Source of the DNA: Candidatus Saccharimonadota bacterium | GTDB taxonomy: Bacteria > Patescibacteriota > Saccharimonadia > Saccharimonadales > Saccharimonadaceae | DNA: 32,000 nucleotides | Assembly: GCA_000503915.1 (NCBI GenBank) | Contig: CP006915.1 | Location: 450,001-482,000 of the forward strand | Reading direction: 5' to 3' | Position numbers and translations under genes: made by a program | Part shown: positions 1 through 31,326 of the stretch, one piece after another | Layout of the letters: each line of letters starts with the position of its first letter | Numbering within the stretch: the stretch's first letter is position 1 | The notes under the pieces: model-generated | The model's database searches: none | Told to the model about the DNA's origin: nothing | Seen by the model: the letters and a program-made list of their open reading frames with translations, nothing else

Positions 1-334
1 ATATGAGATTGACGGCCTAGTATTGGTAACTACCAACTACTAGTCAAGTCAATGCATAAAAAGGTACTCAAGGGCACAGAGCGGATGCCTTGACGTATAT
101 CACCGATGAAGGACGTGGAAGACTGCGATAAGTCTCGGGTAGCTGTCAACAAGCTTTGATCCGGGAATTTCCGAATGGGGAAACCTAGTGCGAGTTATGT
201 CGCATTGTCTGCTTCTGAATATATAGGAAGTATGAACGGGAACCAACTGAACTGAAACATCTTAGTAGGTTGAGGAAGAGAAAGTAAATAACGATACTCG
301 GAGTAGTGGCGAGCGAAACGGGTAGAGCCCAAAC

Positions 335-500
335 CTTACAAGTTTTTGTCTGTTCGCAGGCAATAACGGCTGATAGGCCAATGCTTATAAGGGGTTGTGA
401 TATTACATATGACCAAGTCAGAGAATTAAACCTCGGTTTAGGTATCTGATTTGCGAAGCCCGGCTATCACCGAGGCTATAAGGTAAAAAATCGGCGTGGT
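335..500 (+). other. 23S domain I expansion segment (about 140-150 nt extra relative to E. coli)
   Basis: The interval between gagcccaaacc and gagtagggcgggg is about 248 nt here versus about 105 nt in E. coli. It contains local helices, e.g. ccttacaag/cttataagg and cctcgg(431-436)/ccgagg(470-475). Confidence 0.6.
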
Positions 501-656
501 TAGCAGAATAACTTGAATGGTTAACCAAAGGACGTGAAAGTCGTGTATGTGAAAACGACGCTGACCTTATGTGTGTTTTATCGAGTAGGGCGGGGCACGA
601 GAAACCCTGTCTGAATCCGGCTGGACCACCAGCCAAGGCTAAATATGATATACGAT

Positions 657-697
<41 letters not shown>

Positions 698-1373
698 CCG
701 GGAGGGGAGTGAAATAGATCCTGAAACTCTGTGCCTACAAGGAGTCGGAGCAGATTTATTCTGTGACGGCGTGCTTTTTGTAGAACGATCCAGCGAGTTA
801 ATTTCTAGAGCAAGGTTAAGTCAAGTGACGGAGCCATAGTGAAAGCGAGCCTGAATAGGGCGAATTAGTTCTAGGGATTAGACCCGAAACCAGGTGACCT
901 AACCATGGGCAGGTTGAAGCGACAGTAACATGTCGTGAAGGACCGAACCAGTGTCGTGTAACAGGCTTGGATGACCTGTGGTTAGCGGTGAAATGCCATT
1001 CGAACTTGGAGATAGCTGGTTCTCCTCGAAATAGCTTTAGGGCTAGCGTCGCGTAGTAGCATACGGGGGTAGAGCTCTGTAAAGGACTGGGGGGAGCAAT
1101 CCTACCCACCCTTAACAAACTACGAATACCGTATGTGTAATCGCGGCAGTTAGAACGTCGGGGCTAAGCTCGGCGCTCGAAAGGGAAACAGCCCAGACCA
1201 TCGTCTAAGGTCCCTAAATTAACACTAAGTGGGAAACAAGGTGAGATTTCTTAAACAGCTAGGATGTTGGCTTAGAAGCAGCCATTCATTTAAAGAGTGC
1301 GTAACAGCTCACTAGTCAAGAGATCTTGCGTGGAAAATGTAACGGGGCTAAGTGTTATACCGAAGACATGGAT

Positions 1374-1502
1374 GCCACCAGTACAGTAAACATCTAACGT
1401 AGAAAAGCTACATTTTCTCCGCCACCCGGAAGGGCTGTCGGTCAAAATAGCTCCGCCAAGGCGGATAACCTACGATCATGAGGTGTTTAGTGTACTGGTG
1501 GC
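1374..1502 (+). other. 23S helix-45-region insertion (IVS-like extended hairpin, about 100 nt extra)
   Basis: E. coli has a hairpin of about 25 nt between CACCGAAGCTGCGG and GGGTAGGGGAGCGTTC; here there are 129 nt. The segment is closed by a perfect 12-bp stem, gccaccagtaca (1374-1385) / tgtactggtggc (1491-1502). Confidence 0.7.
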
Positions 1503-1993
1503 GTGGTAGAGGAGCGTTCCTATCTGCGGTGAAGCAGTTTTGGAAAGAATTGTGGAGCGTTAGGAAGTGAGAATGCTGGAATGAGTAACCACAAGAGGGG
1601 TGAGAATCCCCTCGGCCGTAAGAGCAAGGTTTCCTGAGCTATGGTAATCATCTCAGGGTTAGTCGGGCCTAAGCCGAGGCGCATAGCGTAGGCGATGGAC
1701 ATCAGGTTAATATTCCTGAACCGGCGTGTTTTGTACACTGTTCACGGCGAGATATTCGGAGCGGATTCATGGTTTATCCGTCCAACCTAGGGGGAACCCG
1801 ATGGGAGTGAAAGTTACCTTTTTAAGGTGACGATTCTGGAAAAGGCGCTGGCTAGAAAAGCAGGTGTACGCGTGGACACGTCGACCGTACCGCAAACCAA
1901 CACAGGTGCTCGAGTCGAGTAGACTCAGGCTTACGAGAGAACCTTCGCTAAGGAACTCGGCAATACAGCGACCGTAACTTCGGGATAAGGTCT

Positions 1994-2226
1994 GCCCCCA
2001 CTTCGGTGGATATGAGCCGCGTTCATAAACTCAGCGATTAGGTGGTTAGAAGAACGCATTTATCAGAGGTAAAAGCGCTGATAAATGTAGTGAGTACGCA
2101 TCGTTTCTGCGTAAAGTAGAATCGGTGTGATCAAATCCTTTTTAAAACCATAGAATTTTTCTGAGATAAGTAACATGAATAATGTTCTTTTGAACGCGAA
2201 CCGTTCACATCTAACGATGTGGGGGC
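1994..2226 (+). other. 23S domain IV (helix-63 region) insertion, about 170-180 nt extra, AT-rich and highly structured
   Basis: The interval between cttcgggataagg and ggaactgtttatcaaaaacacagg is about 250 nt versus about 68 nt in E. coli. It is bounded by gcccccac (1994-2001) / gtgggggc (2219-2226). Internal perfect stems include catttatcag (2057-2066) / ctgataaatg (2078-2087), plus tacgca/tgcgta, gaacg/cgttc and cacatc/gatgtg. Confidence 0.7.
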
Positions 2227-2967
2227 CGCAGCAAAAGAGCCCACGGAACTGTTTATCAAAAACACAGGTCTCTGCTAACACGAAAGTGGATGTATAGGGG
2301 CTGACTCCTGCCCAATGCTGGAAGGTTAAGGGGAGCGCTTCACGGTGCGAACTGAAGCCCTAGTCAATGGCGGCGGTAACTATAACCGTCCTAAGGTAGC
2401 GAAATTCCTTGTCAGGTAAGTTCTGACCCGCACGAATGGAGTAATCATGTGGGCACTGTCTCAGCGAAGGACTCGGTGAAAGTGCATTGGCGGTAAAGAT
2501 GCCGTCTGTCCGTACCAGGACGAGAAGACCCCATGGAGCTTTACTACAGTTTTACATTGATCCGGGTTTTGGCCCGTGTAGCATAGTTGGGAGACGTTGA
2601 AGCAGATACGCTAGTATTTGTGGAGTCGCCGGTGAAATACCAACCTTGCCAAGATCTTGATCTCACCCTGACCGTTATCCGGTTAGGGGACCGTGTATGA
2701 TGGGTAGTTTAACTGGGGCGGTTGCCTCCTAAAGAGTAGCGGAGGCGTTCAAAGGTTGGCTAGCTTCGGATGGAAATCGAAGTGATAGTGTATGCGCATA
2801 AGCCAGCTTGACTGTGAGGAGTACATTCCAAGCAGAGACGAAAGTCGGAGCAAGTGATCCGCTGTACGTACATTTGTACATGAATGTGGGATCGACAGCG
2901 CAAACGGATAAAAGTTACCCTGGGGATAACAGGCTTATAGCGCCCAATAGTTCACATAGACGGCGCT

Positions 2968-3002
<35 letters not shown>

Positions 3003-3016
3003 AGGGGGAGCACCTT

Positions 3017-3087
<71 letters not shown>

Positions 3088-3123
3088 TTATATCCGGTAT
3101 GGACGATAGGAAATTTGAGAGGA

Positions 3124-3156
<33 letters not shown>

Positions 3157-3564
3157 AACCTCTGGTGTATCGATTGTGGCCACCTGCTGCATTGTCGAGT
3201 AGCTAAGTTCGGACTAGATAAGTGCTGAAAGCATATTAAGCACGAAACTAACCTCAAGATTAGATTTCCCTATGAGGACACTGAAAGATTATCAGTTTGA
3301 TAGGTGCAAGGTGGAAGTGCAGTAATGCATGGAGCTGAAGCATACTAATAGTCCCATTGCCTTTTTATGTCCTTATCACCAGCGTTAATGCTTGCATTAA
3401 CAGAGGTGATGAGGTAGACTTGACTAGTAATTGGTGTTTATCACCACGTTAGTCTCTAAAAAAGAGATTTGTACATCACTAATCCGTGTCTACGAGTTCA
3501 CGGACATCGAAGTAAGGCTTTTCCCAGGTTGCCCAGCGCGGAACCTCCGAGGAGCAAGCCTTAC

Positions 3565-3673
3565 TTCGGTGCCCATGGCGACGAGGAAACACCTGTTCTC
3601 ATCCCGAACACAGCAGTTAAGCTCGTCAGCGGCGATTATACTGCCACAAGTGGGAAACTAGCACGGTGCCGAA
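3565..3673 (+). rRNA. rrf: 5S ribosomal RNA (109 nt)
   Basis: Conserved cccgaacacagcagttaagc core. Helix I forms between 5' ttcggtgcc and 3' ggtgccgaa (9 bp including two G-U pairs). It lies about 195 nt after the 23S and is followed by a terminator. Confidence 0.9.
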
Positions 3674-3683
3674 TTATACAAAT

Positions 3684-25946: not shown

Positions 25947-26579
25947 ATGTTTACTCGAATCAAAGAATATTTTACCCACCACGAAGCCACTGTACGAGAC
26001 AACCGCTGGATTTTCAGCAGTATGCTCGTCGGCTCGCTCTTAAGTCTACTGGCTTCGTTTGCCTTATCAGTTGATGTGATCGAACTAGCGAAAAATCCTG
26101 ACGCACAGCTTAGCTGTAGTATCAGTGCGGTGGTCAACTGCGCGACCGTTAACAGTCATCCCAGCGCAACCATGTTTGGCTTCCCGAACAGTTTTCTCGG
26201 CCTGATAGCTGAACCGATCGTCATCACCGTTGCAATCGCTGGCCTGGTTGGCATTCGTTTTCCGCGTAAATTTATGTTTGCGGCGCAAATTGGCTATACG
26301 CTCGGCTTTATCTTTGCCTGGACGCTGTTTTATATCAGTTTCTTCATCATCCAGGTACTTTGTCCGTGGTGCCTGCTGGTGACGCTGACGACTACGCTGG
26401 TGTGGTTTGCGATTACGCGCTACAACATTCGTGAAGGTAACCTATATCTACCGAAAGACGTATCGATACGTCTAAAAGCGTGGGTGGCGAAGGACTACGA
26501 CAAGGCTGCTATGTTTGGGCTGATCGCACTTGTGACGGCAGCCATCTTGGTGAAGTACGGCAACGGATTGTTTCTCTAG
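25947..26579 (+). CDS. Vitamin K epoxide reductase (VKOR)-family membrane protein
   Basis: Multi-pass membrane protein with a loop Cys pair (LSCSISAVVNC) and an in-membrane CPWC redox motif. Confidence 0.8.
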   Translation: MFTRIKEYFTHHEATVRDNRWIFSSMLVGSLLSLLASFALSVDVIELAKNPDAQLSCSISAVVNCATVNSHPSATMFGFPNSFLGLIAEPIVITVAIAGLVGIRFPRKFMFAAQIGYTLGFIFAWTLFYISFFIIQVLCPWCLLVTLTTTLVWFAITRYNIREGNLYLPKDVSIRLKAWVAKDYDKAAMFGLIALVTAAILVKYGNGLFL

Positions 26580-26669: not shown

Positions 26670-27176
26670 ATGGCACAAAAATCATCAAACTATAAAACAG
26701 CCTGGAAGGCACTAGCCGTTGGCAGGATTATTCTTGGTCTTATTCTATTGTGGGCATTCTTTGACAAGACGTTCGGCTGGTATTTTGCGACAAAGCCGAC
26801 AGATGCCTGGATCAACGGTGGCTCACCGACGACCGGCTTTTTGCAATTTGGCGTCAATGGCGGTAGCCCATTCGCTGACTTTTTCACTAGCCTCGCTGGA
26901 CAAGCTTGGGTTGACTGGCTATTTATGGCCGGCCTCCTCGGTATCGGTCTCGCACTTGTCCTTGGTATTGGGCTACGTATCGCAGCCGTGACAGGTACGG
27001 TACTAATGCTACTCTTGTGGATGGCCGAAATGCCTTCTGACAACAACCCAGCTCTCGACGATCACCTTGTTTACGCCGCTGTCATGATCATGGTGGCAAC
27101 TGGACGTCGCGAGTGGAGCCTAACCAACTGGTGGCTAAGCCTCGGTTTCGTCAAGAAAAACAAGTGGCTCTGGTAA
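26670..27176 (+). CDS. DoxX/DoxD-like integral membrane protein
   Basis: 168 aa with about 4 TM segments (GRIILGLILLWAFFDK..., LFMAGLLGIGLALVLGIGLRIAAVTGTVLMLLLW). SD is aggggg. The family call is by pattern only. Confidence 0.5.
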   Translation: MAQKSSNYKTAWKALAVGRIILGLILLWAFFDKTFGWYFATKPTDAWINGGSPTTGFLQFGVNGGSPFADFFTSLAGQAWVDWLFMAGLLGIGLALVLGIGLRIAAVTGTVLMLLLWMAEMPSDNNPALDDHLVYAAVMIMVATGRREWSLTNWWLSLGFVKKNKWLW

Positions 27177-27194
27177 ACATTGTCTAAGTTATGT

Positions 27195-27222
27195 AAAATG
27201 AGGACAGAAACGTCCTCATTTT
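27195..27222 (+). terminator. Rho-independent terminator after the DoxX-like gene
   Basis: Perfect 11-bp stem aaaatgaggac / gtcctcatttt with loop agaaac. It has an A-tract upstream and a T-tract downstream. Confidence 0.75.
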
Positions 27223-27416
27223 AATTTGGAGAGTGAGGTAAGCGGCTATCACCCGCGAAGTTTCGGGAAGAACGGCACTTGCCAAGTAGAGCCCGACGCC
27301 AGGCTGCGTAAATGCCGAATGAAGTGCTAAGAAGAATCTCTTTTTAGAACCTGGATGGTACCGTCCGATGAATCGGATTCCAGGAGCTAAGAAGGGATTT
27401 TTAATTGGAGAAAATC
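27206..27416 (+). promoter_or_regulatory. Probable T-box leader (Ile specifier) controlling the downstream ileS operon
   Basis: The antiterminator-like element is helix cctgga (27350-55)/tccagg (27379-84), a 5' bulge TGGTACCG (27356-63), then helix tccga/tcgga with loop tgaa. ttAGaacctGGaTGGTACCGtcc resembles the conserved T-box sequence. An ATC-A (27248-27251) is left unpaired between nested helices gaaac/gtttc (27207-11/27260-64) and cctca/tgagg (27214-18/27234-38). The downstream operon ends in ileS. The 5' boundary is uncertain. Confidence 0.7.
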
Positions 27417-27698
27417 ATGGAAGAGTTTATACCGTTCACACCCGAACACGAGACGACTGAAGAGCGAGCCGCGTGGGATGATATTCTACGCGCTCTTAGT
27501 ACGCTGCGCGAGTACGATGAGGAGCTGGATGTATATGAGGCGATCCAGAATCTTAAGGATGAGCAGCTTGAAGACGGGTATATGATGGTTTTCAATTATG
27601 CGGTCAATGTGATTGTTCCCGAGGATGAGTCGAGCGACCTTGAGCAGGTAATGGAACTTCTCCAGGACAGTGGAGTGGTAGAAGGATGGGCAGAATGA
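27417..27698 (+). CDS. Hypothetical small acidic protein (93 aa), first gene of the T-box-led operon
   Basis: ATG 27417 lies 6 nt after ggag, whereas the track start at 27405 is a TTG. The stop overlaps the next start as ATGA (27695-27698). No family recognised. Confidence 0.6.
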   Translation: MEEFIPFTPEHETTEERAAWDDILRALSTLREYDEELDVYEAIQNLKDEQLEDGYMMVFNYAVNVIVPEDESSDLEQVMELLQDSGVVEGWAE

Positions 27699-28480
27699 AA
27701 TTTAAAGCAGTTATCACCGACCTCGACGGAACTGCGGTTAATTCTCCCGAGCAAAAACAGGCGAGCCAACGCCTGAAGAATGCCGTACGACAGTTAGAGA
27801 AAAGCGGCATCAAAGTGTGCGCAGCAACTGGTCGAGCAATCTCGTTTGCCAAACCACTTCTTTTGTCTATGGGATTGACCGGACCGGCGATTGTTGCCGG
27901 AGGCACGAAAATCATCGACTCACAATCTTTCCAAGAACTGTGGTCATGCGCTATTTCTGACGAGGCTATGGCAAAAGTAAAGGCAGAGGTTGAGAGCATG
28001 CCTTATGGATACCTTTGGAATGACTATATCGAGGACGATTATTTGAATGGCGGCTGGCAACTAGCGGATATGCCAGTGAATGAAAAAAACGTTTACTTTT
28101 TTGAAATTGTGTTTGTTCCTGACGACGAAGCATTTGCGCTTGCCGGTAGACTTTCTACGATACCCGACATTGCGGCTACAGTCGTCGTCGCGCAGCGTTC
28201 TGGTATGAGGGATATTCATATCACTAATGCTCGCGCCACCAAGGAACATGCTATTCATGAGCTTGAAGCAATGCTTGACATATCAAAAGCGGAAATGATC
28301 GGGGTAGGTGACGGGCATAATGACTTACATCTGTATAATGCAGTTGGTTATAAAGTGGCGATGAGTAATGCGGTTCCTGAACTGAAAGAAGTAGCGGATG
28401 AAGTAATCGGAGCGGTACAAGATGACGGACTTGCTGAATATTTTGAAAGATTAGCACATGAAGTAAAGGAGAATCGATGA
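27695..28480 (+). CDS. Cof-type HAD-IIB family hydrolase (sugar/phosphate phosphatase-like)
   Basis: Motif I ITDLDGT, cap domain, and motif IV GDGHNDLHL..AMSNA. ATG 27695 is preferred (ATGA overlap with the upstream stop). The stop overlaps the ileS start as ATGA (28477-28480). Confidence 0.8.
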   Translation: MKFKAVITDLDGTAVNSPEQKQASQRLKNAVRQLEKSGIKVCAATGRAISFAKPLLLSMGLTGPAIVAGGTKIIDSQSFQELWSCAISDEAMAKVKAEVESMPYGYLWNDYIEDDYLNGGWQLADMPVNEKNVYFFEIVFVPDDEAFALAGRLSTIPDIAATVVVAQRSGMRDIHITNARATKEHAIHELEAMLDISKAEMIGVGDGHNDLHLYNAVGYKVAMSNAVPELKEVADEVIGAVQDDGLAEYFERLAHEVKENR

Positions 28481-31326
28481 AGTTCAAATCAGGTACACGT
28501 CGGCGGGCGATTGAATACGAAAAAGACTGGGTCAAACGCTGGAAAGCAGATAAAACGTTTGAGAAATCGGTCGAGCAGCGCTCGAAAGATAATTCATATG
28601 TGTTTTACGACGGGCCGCCGTTTATTTCCGGTGTGCCTCACCACGGCACCTTGCTAAGCTCGATCGTCAAAGACGCCGTACCGCGCTACCAAACCATGAA
28701 AGGCAAGCGTGTCGAGCGTGTCTGGGGGTGGGATGCGCATGGTTTACCAGCAGAACGCTATACCGAAAAGAAGCTGGGTATTCATTCTCGCCAGGAAGTA
28801 CTCGATTATGGCCTCGAAAAATACATCAAAGCGACGCGCGCCAATATGCTCGAGACTTCAAGTGCCTGGGAAGATGTCATTGATCGTATCGGTCGCTGGG
28901 TAGAATTTAAGGGTGCCTATAAAACCATGGACAAAGATTACATGGAATCGATCTGGTGGGCGTTCAAGGAGCTTTACGAAAAGGGCAAGATCTACGAAGG
29001 CGAAAAGGTGCTTATGTACTGCACACTCGATGGTACGCCGCTCTCGAAAGCCGAAGTGACAATGGACGCGGGGGCGTATCAGGATGTGACCGATCCGAGT
29101 GTCTATGTTAAGTTCCAACTTGATGACGGGCGCATCTTACTAGCTTGGACGACAACGCCGTGGACATTGCCGGCCAATACGGCACTAGCGGTCAATAAAG
29201 ATGTACGGTATGTTGAAGTTGAAGTTGATGGTGAGCGTATGGTAGTCGCCAAAGACCTAGCCGAAAAAGTGTTTACAGACGAAAAGCATCAACCGCTGAA
29301 CTACGAAGTTCTCAGTGAACTTACTGGTGCCGAACTGGTCGGATTAGAATACCGACCGTTGTTTGTTGATCGCGGCAAGAATGCGCACAAAGTCTGGCAC
29401 GCTGACTATGTGGAGACGGAAGCCGGTACCGGTATTGTCCACCTAGCGCCGACCTACGGTGAGGAAGACTTTGAGCTTGCCAAAAAAGAAGGCTTTCCGG
29501 CCGTACACACCATCGATCAAAACGGCTTTTTCACCGAAGGTGACTGGAAGGGCGAGAATGTATGGGAAGTAAACAAGCAAATTGCGAAGGATCTACATGA
29601 GCGCGGTGTCGTCTGGAAGATCGACTACATCCAGCACAGTTATCCGCACTGTCACCGCTGCGGTACACGTCTAATGTATCGAGCGCATCCGAGCTGGTTT
29701 ATGGATATCGACGGCCAGCGCGAGAAAATGCTCGAGAAAAACGAGCCAATCAACTGGTTTCCGGCACACCTCAAACACGGTCGCTTTGAAAAAACCGTTC
29801 AGCAGGCACCCGACTGGAACATCTCGCGTGACCGCTTTTGGGCGACGGCCATGCCGGTTTGGAAGTCAAAAAGCGGTAAGGTGAAGGTCGTGGGTAGCTA
29901 CGCCGAATTGAAAGAACTCTCGGGTATTGAGTTGGCAGATTACCACCGCCCGTGGATCGACGACGTGAAATTCACTATCGACAGCGAAGAATATACGCGA
30001 ATCGACAAAGTGATGGACAGTTGGTTCGAAGCTGGCAGTATGCCATTTGCACAGTTCCATTATCCGTTTGAAAACAAAGAAAAATTTGAAGAAAACTTCC
30101 CAGGTGACTTTATCGTCGAGTACATCGGTCAAGTGCGTGCCTGGTTTTACTATATGCACGCTATGGCGATTGCATTGTTCGATGAAAACTCATTTAAAAA
30201 CGTCATTACCACCGGAAACGTGGCCGGCAACGATGGCCGTAAGATGAGTAAAAGCTATGGCAACTATACTGATCCAAATGAACTGATGGACAAATTTAGT
30301 GCTGATTCGCTGCGCTTTCTGCTGCTTTCCAGCCCGCTCTTAAACGGTGAAGATTTTGCGCTTCAGGACAAAGAGGTTGGCGATGTCGCGCGCAAGCTCG
30401 GTATGATCTGGAACATGTACGATTTCTTCACGATGTACGCCGAAGTTGATGGCTGGGAGTTTGACGGGGAACTCAAAGACCCGCTCGATGAGGCTACTAA
30501 TCCGCTCGATATTTGGATCATTTCGCGTCTCCATCAGCTAATTGAAGAGATTGAGAAAAACATGGATGTCTATAATCTCCCCGACGCGATGAATCCAATC
30601 TTACCGTTCCTTGACGATGCGTCAAACTGGTACGTGCGCCGCAGCCGTCGCCGATTCTGGAAGTCGGAAGACGACGGAGACAAACAGATGGCCTACCAGA
30701 CGCTTCATTATGTGCTGGTACGGCTAGCCTACGTGCTAGCGCCCTTCACGCCATTCCTCGCCGAGGAGCTGTATCATAATTTAACCGGTGATAAAGAATC
30801 GATTCACCTCAAGGATTGGCTATCGGCGGGTCATATCAATAAGCTCGTGATGGACGACATGGAGACAGTGCGTGATTATGCTAACCAGGGGTTAAGCTTG
30901 CGTGCAAAAGCCGGCCTGAAAGTGCGCCAGCCACTGGCTAGCGTCACGGTACCCAGCCTAGGTGAGTATGTAGAATTTGAACCAATCCTACTCGATGAGC
31001 TGAATGTTAGATCTGTAAAAATCGGTGATGCGGTGACGATCGATGAAACGTTGACACCAGAGCTGCGGCGCGAAGGTTTGATACGCGAAGTCATTCGCCA
31101 TATCCAAGCCGCACGCAAGAAAGCAAATCTTAAAGTGGATGACCATATCAGTCTTTCACTATCGACAGCTGGTGACAATGAGCTGACAAAAGCTATCAAC
31201 GAGCATGAAGATACAATCATGGCGGAAACACTGGCGGATCACATGGTGAAAGGCGACCTCGCCCACAGTGAGTCGGTGAAAGTTGAAGATGAAGAGCTAG
31301 TCATCTCTCTCGAAAAAGCTCACTAA
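28477..31326 (+). CDS. ileS: Isoleucyl-tRNA synthetase, type 2 (eukaryote/actinobacterial-like)
   Basis: FYDGPPFISGVPHHGT (HIGH region in the type-2 context YDGPPF), WGWDAHGLPAE, the editing domain, KMSKS (GRKMSKSYGN) and the anticodon-binding domain. Length 949 aa. Confidence 0.93.
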   Translation: MKFKSGTRRRAIEYEKDWVKRWKADKTFEKSVEQRSKDNSYVFYDGPPFISGVPHHGTLLSSIVKDAVPRYQTMKGKRVERVWGWDAHGLPAERYTEKKLGIHSRQEVLDYGLEKYIKATRANMLETSSAWEDVIDRIGRWVEFKGAYKTMDKDYMESIWWAFKELYEKGKIYEGEKVLMYCTLDGTPLSKAEVTMDAGAYQDVTDPSVYVKFQLDDGRILLAWTTTPWTLPANTALAVNKDVRYVEVEVDGERMVVAKDLAEKVFTDEKHQPLNYEVLSELTGAELVGLEYRPLFVDRGKNAHKVWHADYVETEAGTGIVHLAPTYGEEDFELAKKEGFPAVHTIDQNGFFTEGDWKGENVWEVNKQIAKDLHERGVVWKIDYIQHSYPHCHRCGTRLMYRAHPSWFMDIDGQREKMLEKNEPINWFPAHLKHGRFEKTVQQAPDWNISRDRFWATAMPVWKSKSGKVKVVGSYAELKELSGIELADYHRPWIDDVKFTIDSEEYTRIDKVMDSWFEAGSMPFAQFHYPFENKEKFEENFPGDFIVEYIGQVRAWFYYMHAMAIALFDENSFKNVITTGNVAGNDGRKMSKSYGNYTDPNELMDKFSADSLRFLLLSSPLLNGEDFALQDKEVGDVARKLGMIWNMYDFFTMYAEVDGWEFDGELKDPLDEATNPLDIWIISRLHQLIEEIEKNMDVYNLPDAMNPILPFLDDASNWYVRRSRRRFWKSEDDGDKQMAYQTLHYVLVRLAYVLAPFTPFLAEELYHNLTGDKESIHLKDWLSAGHINKLVMDDMETVRDYANQGLSLRAKAGLKVRQPLASVTVPSLGEYVEFEPILLDELNVRSVKIGDAVTIDETLTPELRREGLIREVIRHIQAARKKANLKVDDHISLSLSTAGDNELTKAINEHEDTIMAETLADHMVKGDLAHSESVKVEDEELVISLEKAH

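Follow-up and report, generated by a model that had tools for sequence, protein, structure and literature searches.

The window analysed here, a stretch of 32 kb from contig CP006915.1, belongs to a member of Candidatus Saccharibacteria (TM7) within the Patescibacteria, or candidate phyla radiation (CPR). On its forward strand, where all features described below lie, it carries a three-gene operon (27417..31326) preceded by a 240-nt non-coding stretch that comes after a DoxX-like gene, its stop codon and its terminator hairpin. As delimited by open reading frames (ORFs), Pfam and TIGR00392, the operon consists of a 93-aa acidic ORF (27417-27698), a Cof-type HAD hydrolase gene recognized through Pfam (27686-28480) and ileS (28477-31326), with overlapping stop and start codons. 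The product of the third gene is a 949-aa class I synthetase that matches the TIGR00392 ileS model at 803 bits and is 67-83% identical to the isoleucyl-tRNA synthetases (IleRS) of 80 Saccharimonadales genome contigs. The non-coding stretch contains a leader (27232-27405) that is almost certainly a complete T-box riboswitch of the isoleucine type. An earlier note on this DNA, made from the sequence alone, had proposed such a T-box in a CPR-like host, with a very short Stem I and no canonical expression platform; the T-box identity and the host are confirmed, and the platform, which does exist, is indeed non-canonical in its topology.

The decoding half of the leader (27239-27316) was examined in a MAFFT alignment of 69 leaders, the codon loop being read in 70, with helices slid along the alignment as covariation controls. 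It opens with an ultrashort Stem I (27239..27259) composed of UAA, the strand GCGG (27242-45), the loop CUAUCAC (27246-52), the strand CCGC (27253-56) and GAA. This 15-nt hairpin, which has no distal interdigitated T-loop platform for the tRNA elbow, is 100% paired and covaries at 4/4 pairs. Its loop, of 7 nt in all leaders except one (8 nt), holds the specifier codon AUC (27248-50), invariant in the 70 leaders, followed by an A (A27251 in the window) that is conserved in at least 90% of them. The earlier note had located AUC-A in this 7-nt GCGG/CCGC loop and had rightly compared the short Stem I without an elbow platform to actinobacterial ileS T-boxes, but its other placement of the codon, within two nested helices of a Stem I of about 58 nt, took the span of Stem I plus Stem II for Stem I. 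GA flanks like those of a K-turn precede the hairpin in 46/69 leaders and follow it in 57/69 (the window has UAA...GAA), and a flanking 3-bp C-stem can be drawn in 23/69 leaders, as opposed to 10.0 +/- 2.6 for permuted partners; support for a basal K-turn in Stem I is partial, the motif being clear in a subset of leaders only.

Stem II (27263..27296) is made up of a lower helix (U27263-G27267/C27292-A27296), which is 97.7% paired and covaries at 5/5 pairs, and an apical GGC/GCC hairpin, with internal loops AAGAA (27268-72) and AAGUAGAG (27284-91) of the GAA/AGUA type. The GAA and AGUAGA motifs are invariant or nearly so, and the Rfam T-box model RF00230 places AAGUA on its own Stem II motif; the S-turn is a putative assignment made from the motif. 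Next come Stem IIA (C27297-C27299/G27306-G27308; 94.2% paired) and the IIB pseudoknot (G27302-C27304/G27314-C27316), the latter 71.4% paired with all four tested pairs covarying, through variants such as UCGA/UCGA, CCAG/CUGG, GUGA/UCAC and CCACU/AGUGG. Together the decoding helices are 91.7% paired, with a covariation score of 0.538 versus 0.05-0.10 for slid controls, and no additional conserved helix was found in the decoding half of the 69-leader alignment. Some relatives elaborate this half of the leader: loci L003, L004, L022, L033, L036, L052, L053, L059 and L076 have an additional hairpin after Stem I and before Stem II, which closes a longer basal helix (e.g. UCCG/CGGA), and an insertion of about 190 nt is present at the apex of Stem II in L066 and L080.

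The discriminator half was aligned for 67 leaders, of which 66 distinct ones were used for A1/A2 pairing. Its first part (27322..27349) comprises AAGUG (27322-26), Stem III (C27327-A27333/U27341-G27347, with the loop GAAUCUC) and a 3' AA (27348-49). Stem III has 95.9% pairing in its basal helix; among the flanking purines, A27349 is the same in every leader, and conservation is 90% or more at A27322, A27323, G27324, G27326 and A27348. This arrangement fits 5'-RRRxG-Stem III-AA-3', the signature of the T-box discriminator (PMC7583486). The second part (27350..27384) comprises helix A1 (CCUGGA 27350-55/UCCAGG 27379-84), the 7-nt T-box bulge UGGUACC (27356-62), in which UGGU is complementary to the 3' ACCA of tRNA, and helix A2 (GUCCGA 27363-68/UCGGAU 27373-78, loop UGAA). 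Bacterial tRNA-Ile has a GAU anticodon and A73 as its discriminator base. All 66 distinct leaders have A1 fully paired, with compensatory changes at 4/6 pairs, and A2 is 94.8% paired with covariation at 6/6 pairs. A1 and the bulge lie exactly where they had been noted before, and A2 is there too, one pair longer than had been noted because of G27363.U27378 at its base. In the general T-box definition (PMC7583486) a wobble pair at this place acts as a steric sensor of the aminoacyl group; it is not universally kept here, since only 39 of the 66 leaders have GU at that position (UA in 13, AU in 9 and GC in 3). RF00230 aligns GGAUGGUACCG of the window to GGGUGGUACCG of the model. Most of the 80 loci have UGGUACC upstream of ileS, at a distance of about 70 nt or, if genes intervene, of a few hundred nt. 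The alignment of orthologous leaders that the earlier note had recommended upholds covariation of A1 and A2, invariance of AUC and retention of the UGGU bulge in most loci. Four relatives have variant bulges: UGGAACC (L024:5893-5979), UGGCACC (L066:5902-5988), UGGUAUC (L012:5893-5979) and UGGUAAC (L055:5897-5982). Among structural oddities, the Stem III hairpin of L066 is apparently missing while its GUCCC/GGGAC terminator base is kept, GC-rich hairpins are inserted in the Stem III loop of L010, L052, L063 and L080, and L069 has a long insertion in A2.

The leader is taken for a complete T-box, and not for a mere resemblance at the bulge, because its modules together with the purine signature match the discriminator described in PMC7583486; its isoleucine specificity, as had been proposed, follows from the invariance of AUC in 70 leaders and from the identity of the downstream gene. 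A sensitive search of 27100-27500 (401 nt) with RF00230 gives a full-length alignment (model 1-219) at 39.7 bits (E 1.7e-7), with the distal part of Stem I deleted (19 nt against 71 in the model). The check suggested in the earlier note thus returns a full-length match, but one that falls below the gathering score of 93 bits, at which RF00230 has no match in the window and none in 10 relatives. In three of four divergent relatives, RF00230 is the only sub-threshold match (34.8-38.9 bits). Routine annotation misses this leader family, whose scores of 35-40 bits fall far short of the 93 required at gathering.

R1, a covariance model built here for the discriminator/terminator half, detects a single copy at each ileS locus, both in the window and in 78 of 80 relatives, including three loci where the leader lies 570-660 nt upstream of ileS, behind an inserted gene; the two loci without a match have little or no upstream sequence. 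The isoleucine T-box is universal in the sampled Saccharimonadales, and R1 finds no second copy in the 32-kb window. When metagenomes were scanned for this Stem I hairpin carrying a codon that does not start with A, 33 matches were obtained, none of which has an R1 discriminator or is leader-like, a weak negative given the strictness of the pattern. For now the family appears to be restricted to ileS, as in Actinobacteria. Full-text literature searches found no paper linking T-boxes to Saccharibacteria, TM7 or Patescibacteria, and the T-box database TBDB has applied its short-Stem-I model to Actinobacteria only.

The leader ends in a predicted intrinsic terminator (27333..27405), which consists of a terminator base helix (PT), an AA/AG internal loop, the A1/bulge/A2 hairpin as its apex, the U-run U27398-U27402 and AAUU. 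PT, defined by pairing 27347-i to 27387+i (i = 0-14), is a helix of 13-15 bp (27333-27347/27387-27401) that the leader adopts when folded to minimum energy (z = -5.15), and the hairpin that it closes is followed by UUUUUAAUU. The 5' strand of PT is the loop plus the 3' strand of Stem III, and GCUAAGAAG is present twice, at 27326-34 as the 5' strand of Stem III and at 27386-94 as the 3' strand of PT. Across the family, PT with A1 and A2 is 91.2% paired as opposed to 74.8 +/- 0.6% in shuffles (0/500 shuffles reach the observed value), with changes on both sides at 22 of 25 pairs and a covariation score of 0.570 versus 0.10-0.16 for slid controls. Independently of any alignment, the two strands of PT form duplexes that average -14.05 kcal/mol with their own partners and -7.8 kcal/mol with those of other leaders, a difference reached in 0/5000 permutations. 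A run of at least four U directly follows PT in 67/69 leaders, and U accounts on average for 7.5 of the 9 nt starting at the run. The support for PT is drawn from the covariation of its pairs, because mimicry of Stem III's 5' strand by the 3' strand of PT is only marginal as a family-wide statistic (3.06/5 identical positions versus 2.79 +/- 0.07 permuted). The earlier note had reported no strong terminator and had left the output mechanism open; this terminator, strong and covarying, was overlooked because it takes its 5' strand from Stem III instead of the 3' half of the antiterminator.

Transcription termination is accordingly considered a highly probable mode of action, and the principal competing explanation, at which the earlier note had hinted, is a translational T-box in which an alternative fold hides the Shine-Dalgarno (SD) sequence until tRNA binding exposes it. 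Such an output would agree with the translational action of actinobacterial short-Stem-I T-boxes, which have the same type of decoding (PMC7583486), and in the window the SD lies 5-6 nt past the terminator helix, so that on full-length transcripts the hairpin could hinder binding of the 30S subunit. Against it, no conserved helix takes in either element of the start region (27407..27419), the SD GGAG at 27407-10 or the first operon gene's start codon AUG at 27417, which lie beyond both PT and the U-run; and where ileS directly follows the leader, the U-run ends at a variable distance of 13-45 nt from the start codon, with an unpaired SD in between. A gatttt/aaaatc helix enclosing the SD had been put forward as a candidate; it was rejected because the AAAAUC partner is missing in relatives that have the same UUUUUAAUUGGAGA SD context. 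With the U-run directly after a covarying helix in nearly every leader, purely translational control is judged unlikely.

Stem III and PT are mutually exclusive, for the 3' strand of Stem III is common to both. When each of the 67 leaders was folded in the order of transcription, first up to the end of A1 and then with the next ~15 nt, Stem III formed in 65/67 leaders at the first step (-6.2 +/- 3.0 kcal/mol for Stem III alone), and at the second step the minimum-energy fold became PT in 64/67, with a ddG of -10.8 +/- 3.9 kcal/mol. A1 is intact in 66/67 of the terminator folds, and the UGGN of the bulge is unpaired in both states. Because A1 and the unpaired UGGN persist in both folds, the switching element is Stem III rather than A1/A2.

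Another explanation, that the element is a T-box relic or a constitutive attenuator or stability hairpin independent of tRNA, draws on the low RF00230 score and on the view that regulation is sparse in these reduced genomes (PMC11665869). It is judged less probable than translational control: the positions that would contact the ligand (AUC in 70/70 leaders, UGGUACC, RRRxG/AA and the S-turn motif) are conserved at IleRS identities down to 67%, compensatory changes maintain both of the mutually exclusive helices, and a constitutive terminator before an essential single-copy ileS would be deleterious. Least tenable of all is a canonical transcriptional T-box, in which the 3' strands of A2 and A1 would form the terminator with downstream sequence: the textbook topology (PMC7583486) and a weak 7-bp hairpin with three G.U pairs that can be drawn in the window (GGAUUCC/GGGAUUU, 27375-27400; a candidate in the earlier note) speak for it, but the textbook duplex averages -4.5 kcal/mol versus -4.0 for non-self partners, the hairpin does no better than the same helix slid by one column (70.8% versus 71.4% paired, score 0.19 versus 0.175), both were rejected, and the same downstream nucleotides covary strongly with the 3' side of Stem III.

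The reading preferred here, with a probability of roughly 0.7, is that a tRNA-Ile-responsive T-box controls the ileS operon by transcription attenuation through a terminator that competes with Stem III. The decoding module would present AUC-A in the terminal loop of Stem I, backed by Stem II and IIA/B, and uncharged tRNA-Ile would be held by AUC/GAU and ACCA/UGGU pairing. Docking of the tRNA would lock Stem III and the purine string against the duplex of tRNA and bulge; Stem III thus locked would withhold the 5' strand of the terminator, and RNA polymerase would read into the operon. With charged tRNA, Stem III would undock and be invaded by the downstream mimic (27387-27401), giving the terminator, which as the more stable fold would be the default and whose base helix would stack under an intact A1/A2 hairpin. 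Stem III is indispensable for binding of the tRNA 3' end (PMC7583486), and in the T-box of Mycobacterium tuberculosis ileS a mimic of charged tRNA still pairs with the bulge while the linker undocks and Stem III moves off (PMC12647780). That the switch is a swap of Stem III as described here is considered likely, though less so than termination as the mode of action.

Several points weigh against this reading. A long Stem I is generally required in transcriptional T-boxes so that tRNA is captured fast (PMC7583486), and an ultrashort one in a switch of this kind is therefore kinetically unexpected; the leader would be either kinetically unusual or dependent on pausing. The window for the decision is short, because A1 and the invading strand are only 2 nt apart. 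A generic scan for hairpin-plus-U sites found 23 in the window versus an expected 19 +/- 4.8, which is no enrichment, so that intrinsic termination in this host lacks independent support, although the upstream gene nonetheless ends in a classic hairpin and U-run. An added translational effect is possible, since the SD lies ~5 nt past the U-run in the window and in a few relatives. The bulges of L024 (UGGA) and L066 (UGGC) would not pair with A73 despite an AUC specifier, and the RF00230 score is far under gathering. The GAU anticodon and A73 are assumed as in bacterial tRNA-Ile generally, because no Saccharibacterial tRNA-Ile was retrieved: ARAGORN found no tRNA gene in the 32-kb window (including 1-56, before the 23S rRNA gene) and no tRNA-Ile in 60 related loci, in which tRNA-Trp was the only tRNA found. 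Binding of tRNA, sensing of its charging state, termination and the direction of the switch are all predicted from sequence.

Judged from published descriptions, the leader is most readily compared with the ileS T-boxes of Actinobacteria (M. tuberculosis, Nocardia farcinica and M. smegmatis), for which PMC10651847 cites the structure PDB 6UFM. Both have ileS as their target and AUC as their specifier, both have a short Stem I whose apical loop carries the codon, within a compact decoding module of ~90-100 nt without a distal tRNA-elbow platform, and in both a Stem II of S-turn type precedes a IIA/B pseudoknot, a Stem III flanked by purines, and A1, a 7-nt bulge and A2. The K-turn at the base of Stem I, an actinobacterial feature, is clear in a subset of the Saccharibacterial leaders. 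The output differs, being an intrinsic terminator here and an SD sequestrator in Actinobacteria; moreover, the sequestrator of M. tuberculosis requires large-scale breaking of the antisequestrator (PMC12647780), whereas the alternative helix of Saccharibacteria spares A1/A2, and the host belongs to the Patescibacteria rather than to the Actinobacteria. With the transcriptional T-boxes of Firmicutes (RF00230; Bacillus subtilis tyrS and glyQS) the leader would have in common the logic of tRNA-dependent antitermination, and it shares the UGGN-ACC bulge with A1/A2, the RRRxG-Stem III-AA signature, a Stem II with IIA/B (tyrS-type) and an intrinsic terminator with a U-run. Unlike theirs, its Stem I is a hairpin of 15 nt instead of ~70-90 nt, the 5' strand of its terminator comes from Stem III and not from the 3' strands of A1/A2, so that the 'antiterminator' persists, and the sequence at A1 and the bulge is GGAUGG in place of the GGGUGG of canonical Firmicutes leaders. 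The Saccharibacterial leader is unlike both archetypes in combining an ultrashort Stem I with a terminator, in deriving the terminator 5' strand from Stem III, and in its phylum.

The genes under the control of the leader differ from one lineage to another. The 93-aa ORF and the HAD gene of the window are lineage-specific passengers, not conserved members of a regulon. The 93-aa protein has a single detectable relative, in L008, where its gene is upstream of the leader instead of behind it. Genes between the T-box terminator and ileS vary by lineage in the window and in L003, L004, L005, L007, L011, L013, L015, L017, L018, L030-L034, L044, L045, L052, L056, L058, L067 and L071; they comprise small acidic ORFs and, as judged by eye without a Pfam scan, lookalikes of GNAT acetyltransferase, CYTH, NUDIX and cupin proteins. 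IleRS of the window is of the eukaryote-like type 2, its closest matches in the PDB being 8c8u and 1ile (640-686 bits, versus 303 for the type-1 enzyme of Staphylococcus aureus). Models of the MupA/MupB type match it (28477-31326) at ~645 bits, and a C-terminal DUF5915 domain is present. Type-2 IleRS is generally linked to mupirocin insensitivity, which bears on the choice of inducer in experiments.

The leader is directly preceded by a VKOR-family gene (25947-26579) and the gene of a weakly DoxX-like membrane protein (26670-27176), a thiol/quinone-redox pair apparently unrelated to the T-box. The intrinsic terminator of the DoxX-like gene (27194..27229) has the stem G27200-C27205/G27212-C27217, followed by AUUUUAAUUU. 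A candidate -10 box of the leader, TAAAAU (27194-99), overlaps this terminator (27200-27217 and its U-run); the arrangement of hairpin and TAAAAT recurs in L009, L032 and L007, and pairs of -10/-35-like sequences are present upstream of Stem I in 51/69 leaders. The leader promoter in the window is tentatively assigned. The 3' arm of the terminator, CCUCA (27214-18), has an alternative partner in UGAGG (27234-38), which immediately precedes Stem I; this pairing would give a small 5' hairpin resembling those of many relatives. Elsewhere in the window, the 23S rRNA (57-3369) is 3313 nt long compared to 2925 nt for the bacterial model, with large insertions near its 5' end (e.g. ~343-395 and ~408-483), and the 5S rRNA is at 3565-3674.

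The Saccharibacterial ileS leaders may form a class of their own among T-box expression platforms, a 'Stem III swap' in which the sensor A1/bulge/A2 is folded in both states and only the 3' strand of Stem III changes partner, held either within Stem III or by the downstream mimic of its 5' strand; the evidence leans, if only a little, towards such a class. If so, they would be natural evidence that the docking of Stem III turns the charging status of tRNA into a genetic decision, and that a transcriptional T-box can function without a tRNA-elbow platform, which contradicts the generalization that a long Stem I is required for transcriptional T-boxes (PMC7583486). A platform that competes for Stem III is what the undocking model drawn from single-molecule work (PMC12647780) predicts could evolve, and this leader would offer a simple system in which to test it. 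Tables of T-box distribution that end at Firmicutes, Actinobacteria, Chloroflexi and Deinococcus-Thermus are incomplete, because the Rfam model misses this whole family. Regulation in Patescibacteria is described as virtually unknown, riboswitches being mentioned solely as synthetic tools that are hoped for (PMC11665869); as a native riboswitch, the leader would be the first on record for the CPR/Patescibacteria, and is itself a candidate part for inducible expression. A conserved, predicted tRNA-responsive switch on an essential gene provides a concrete regulatory mechanism in these amino-acid-auxotrophic epibionts, and would sense isoleucine charging, hence indirectly the supply of isoleucine from the host.

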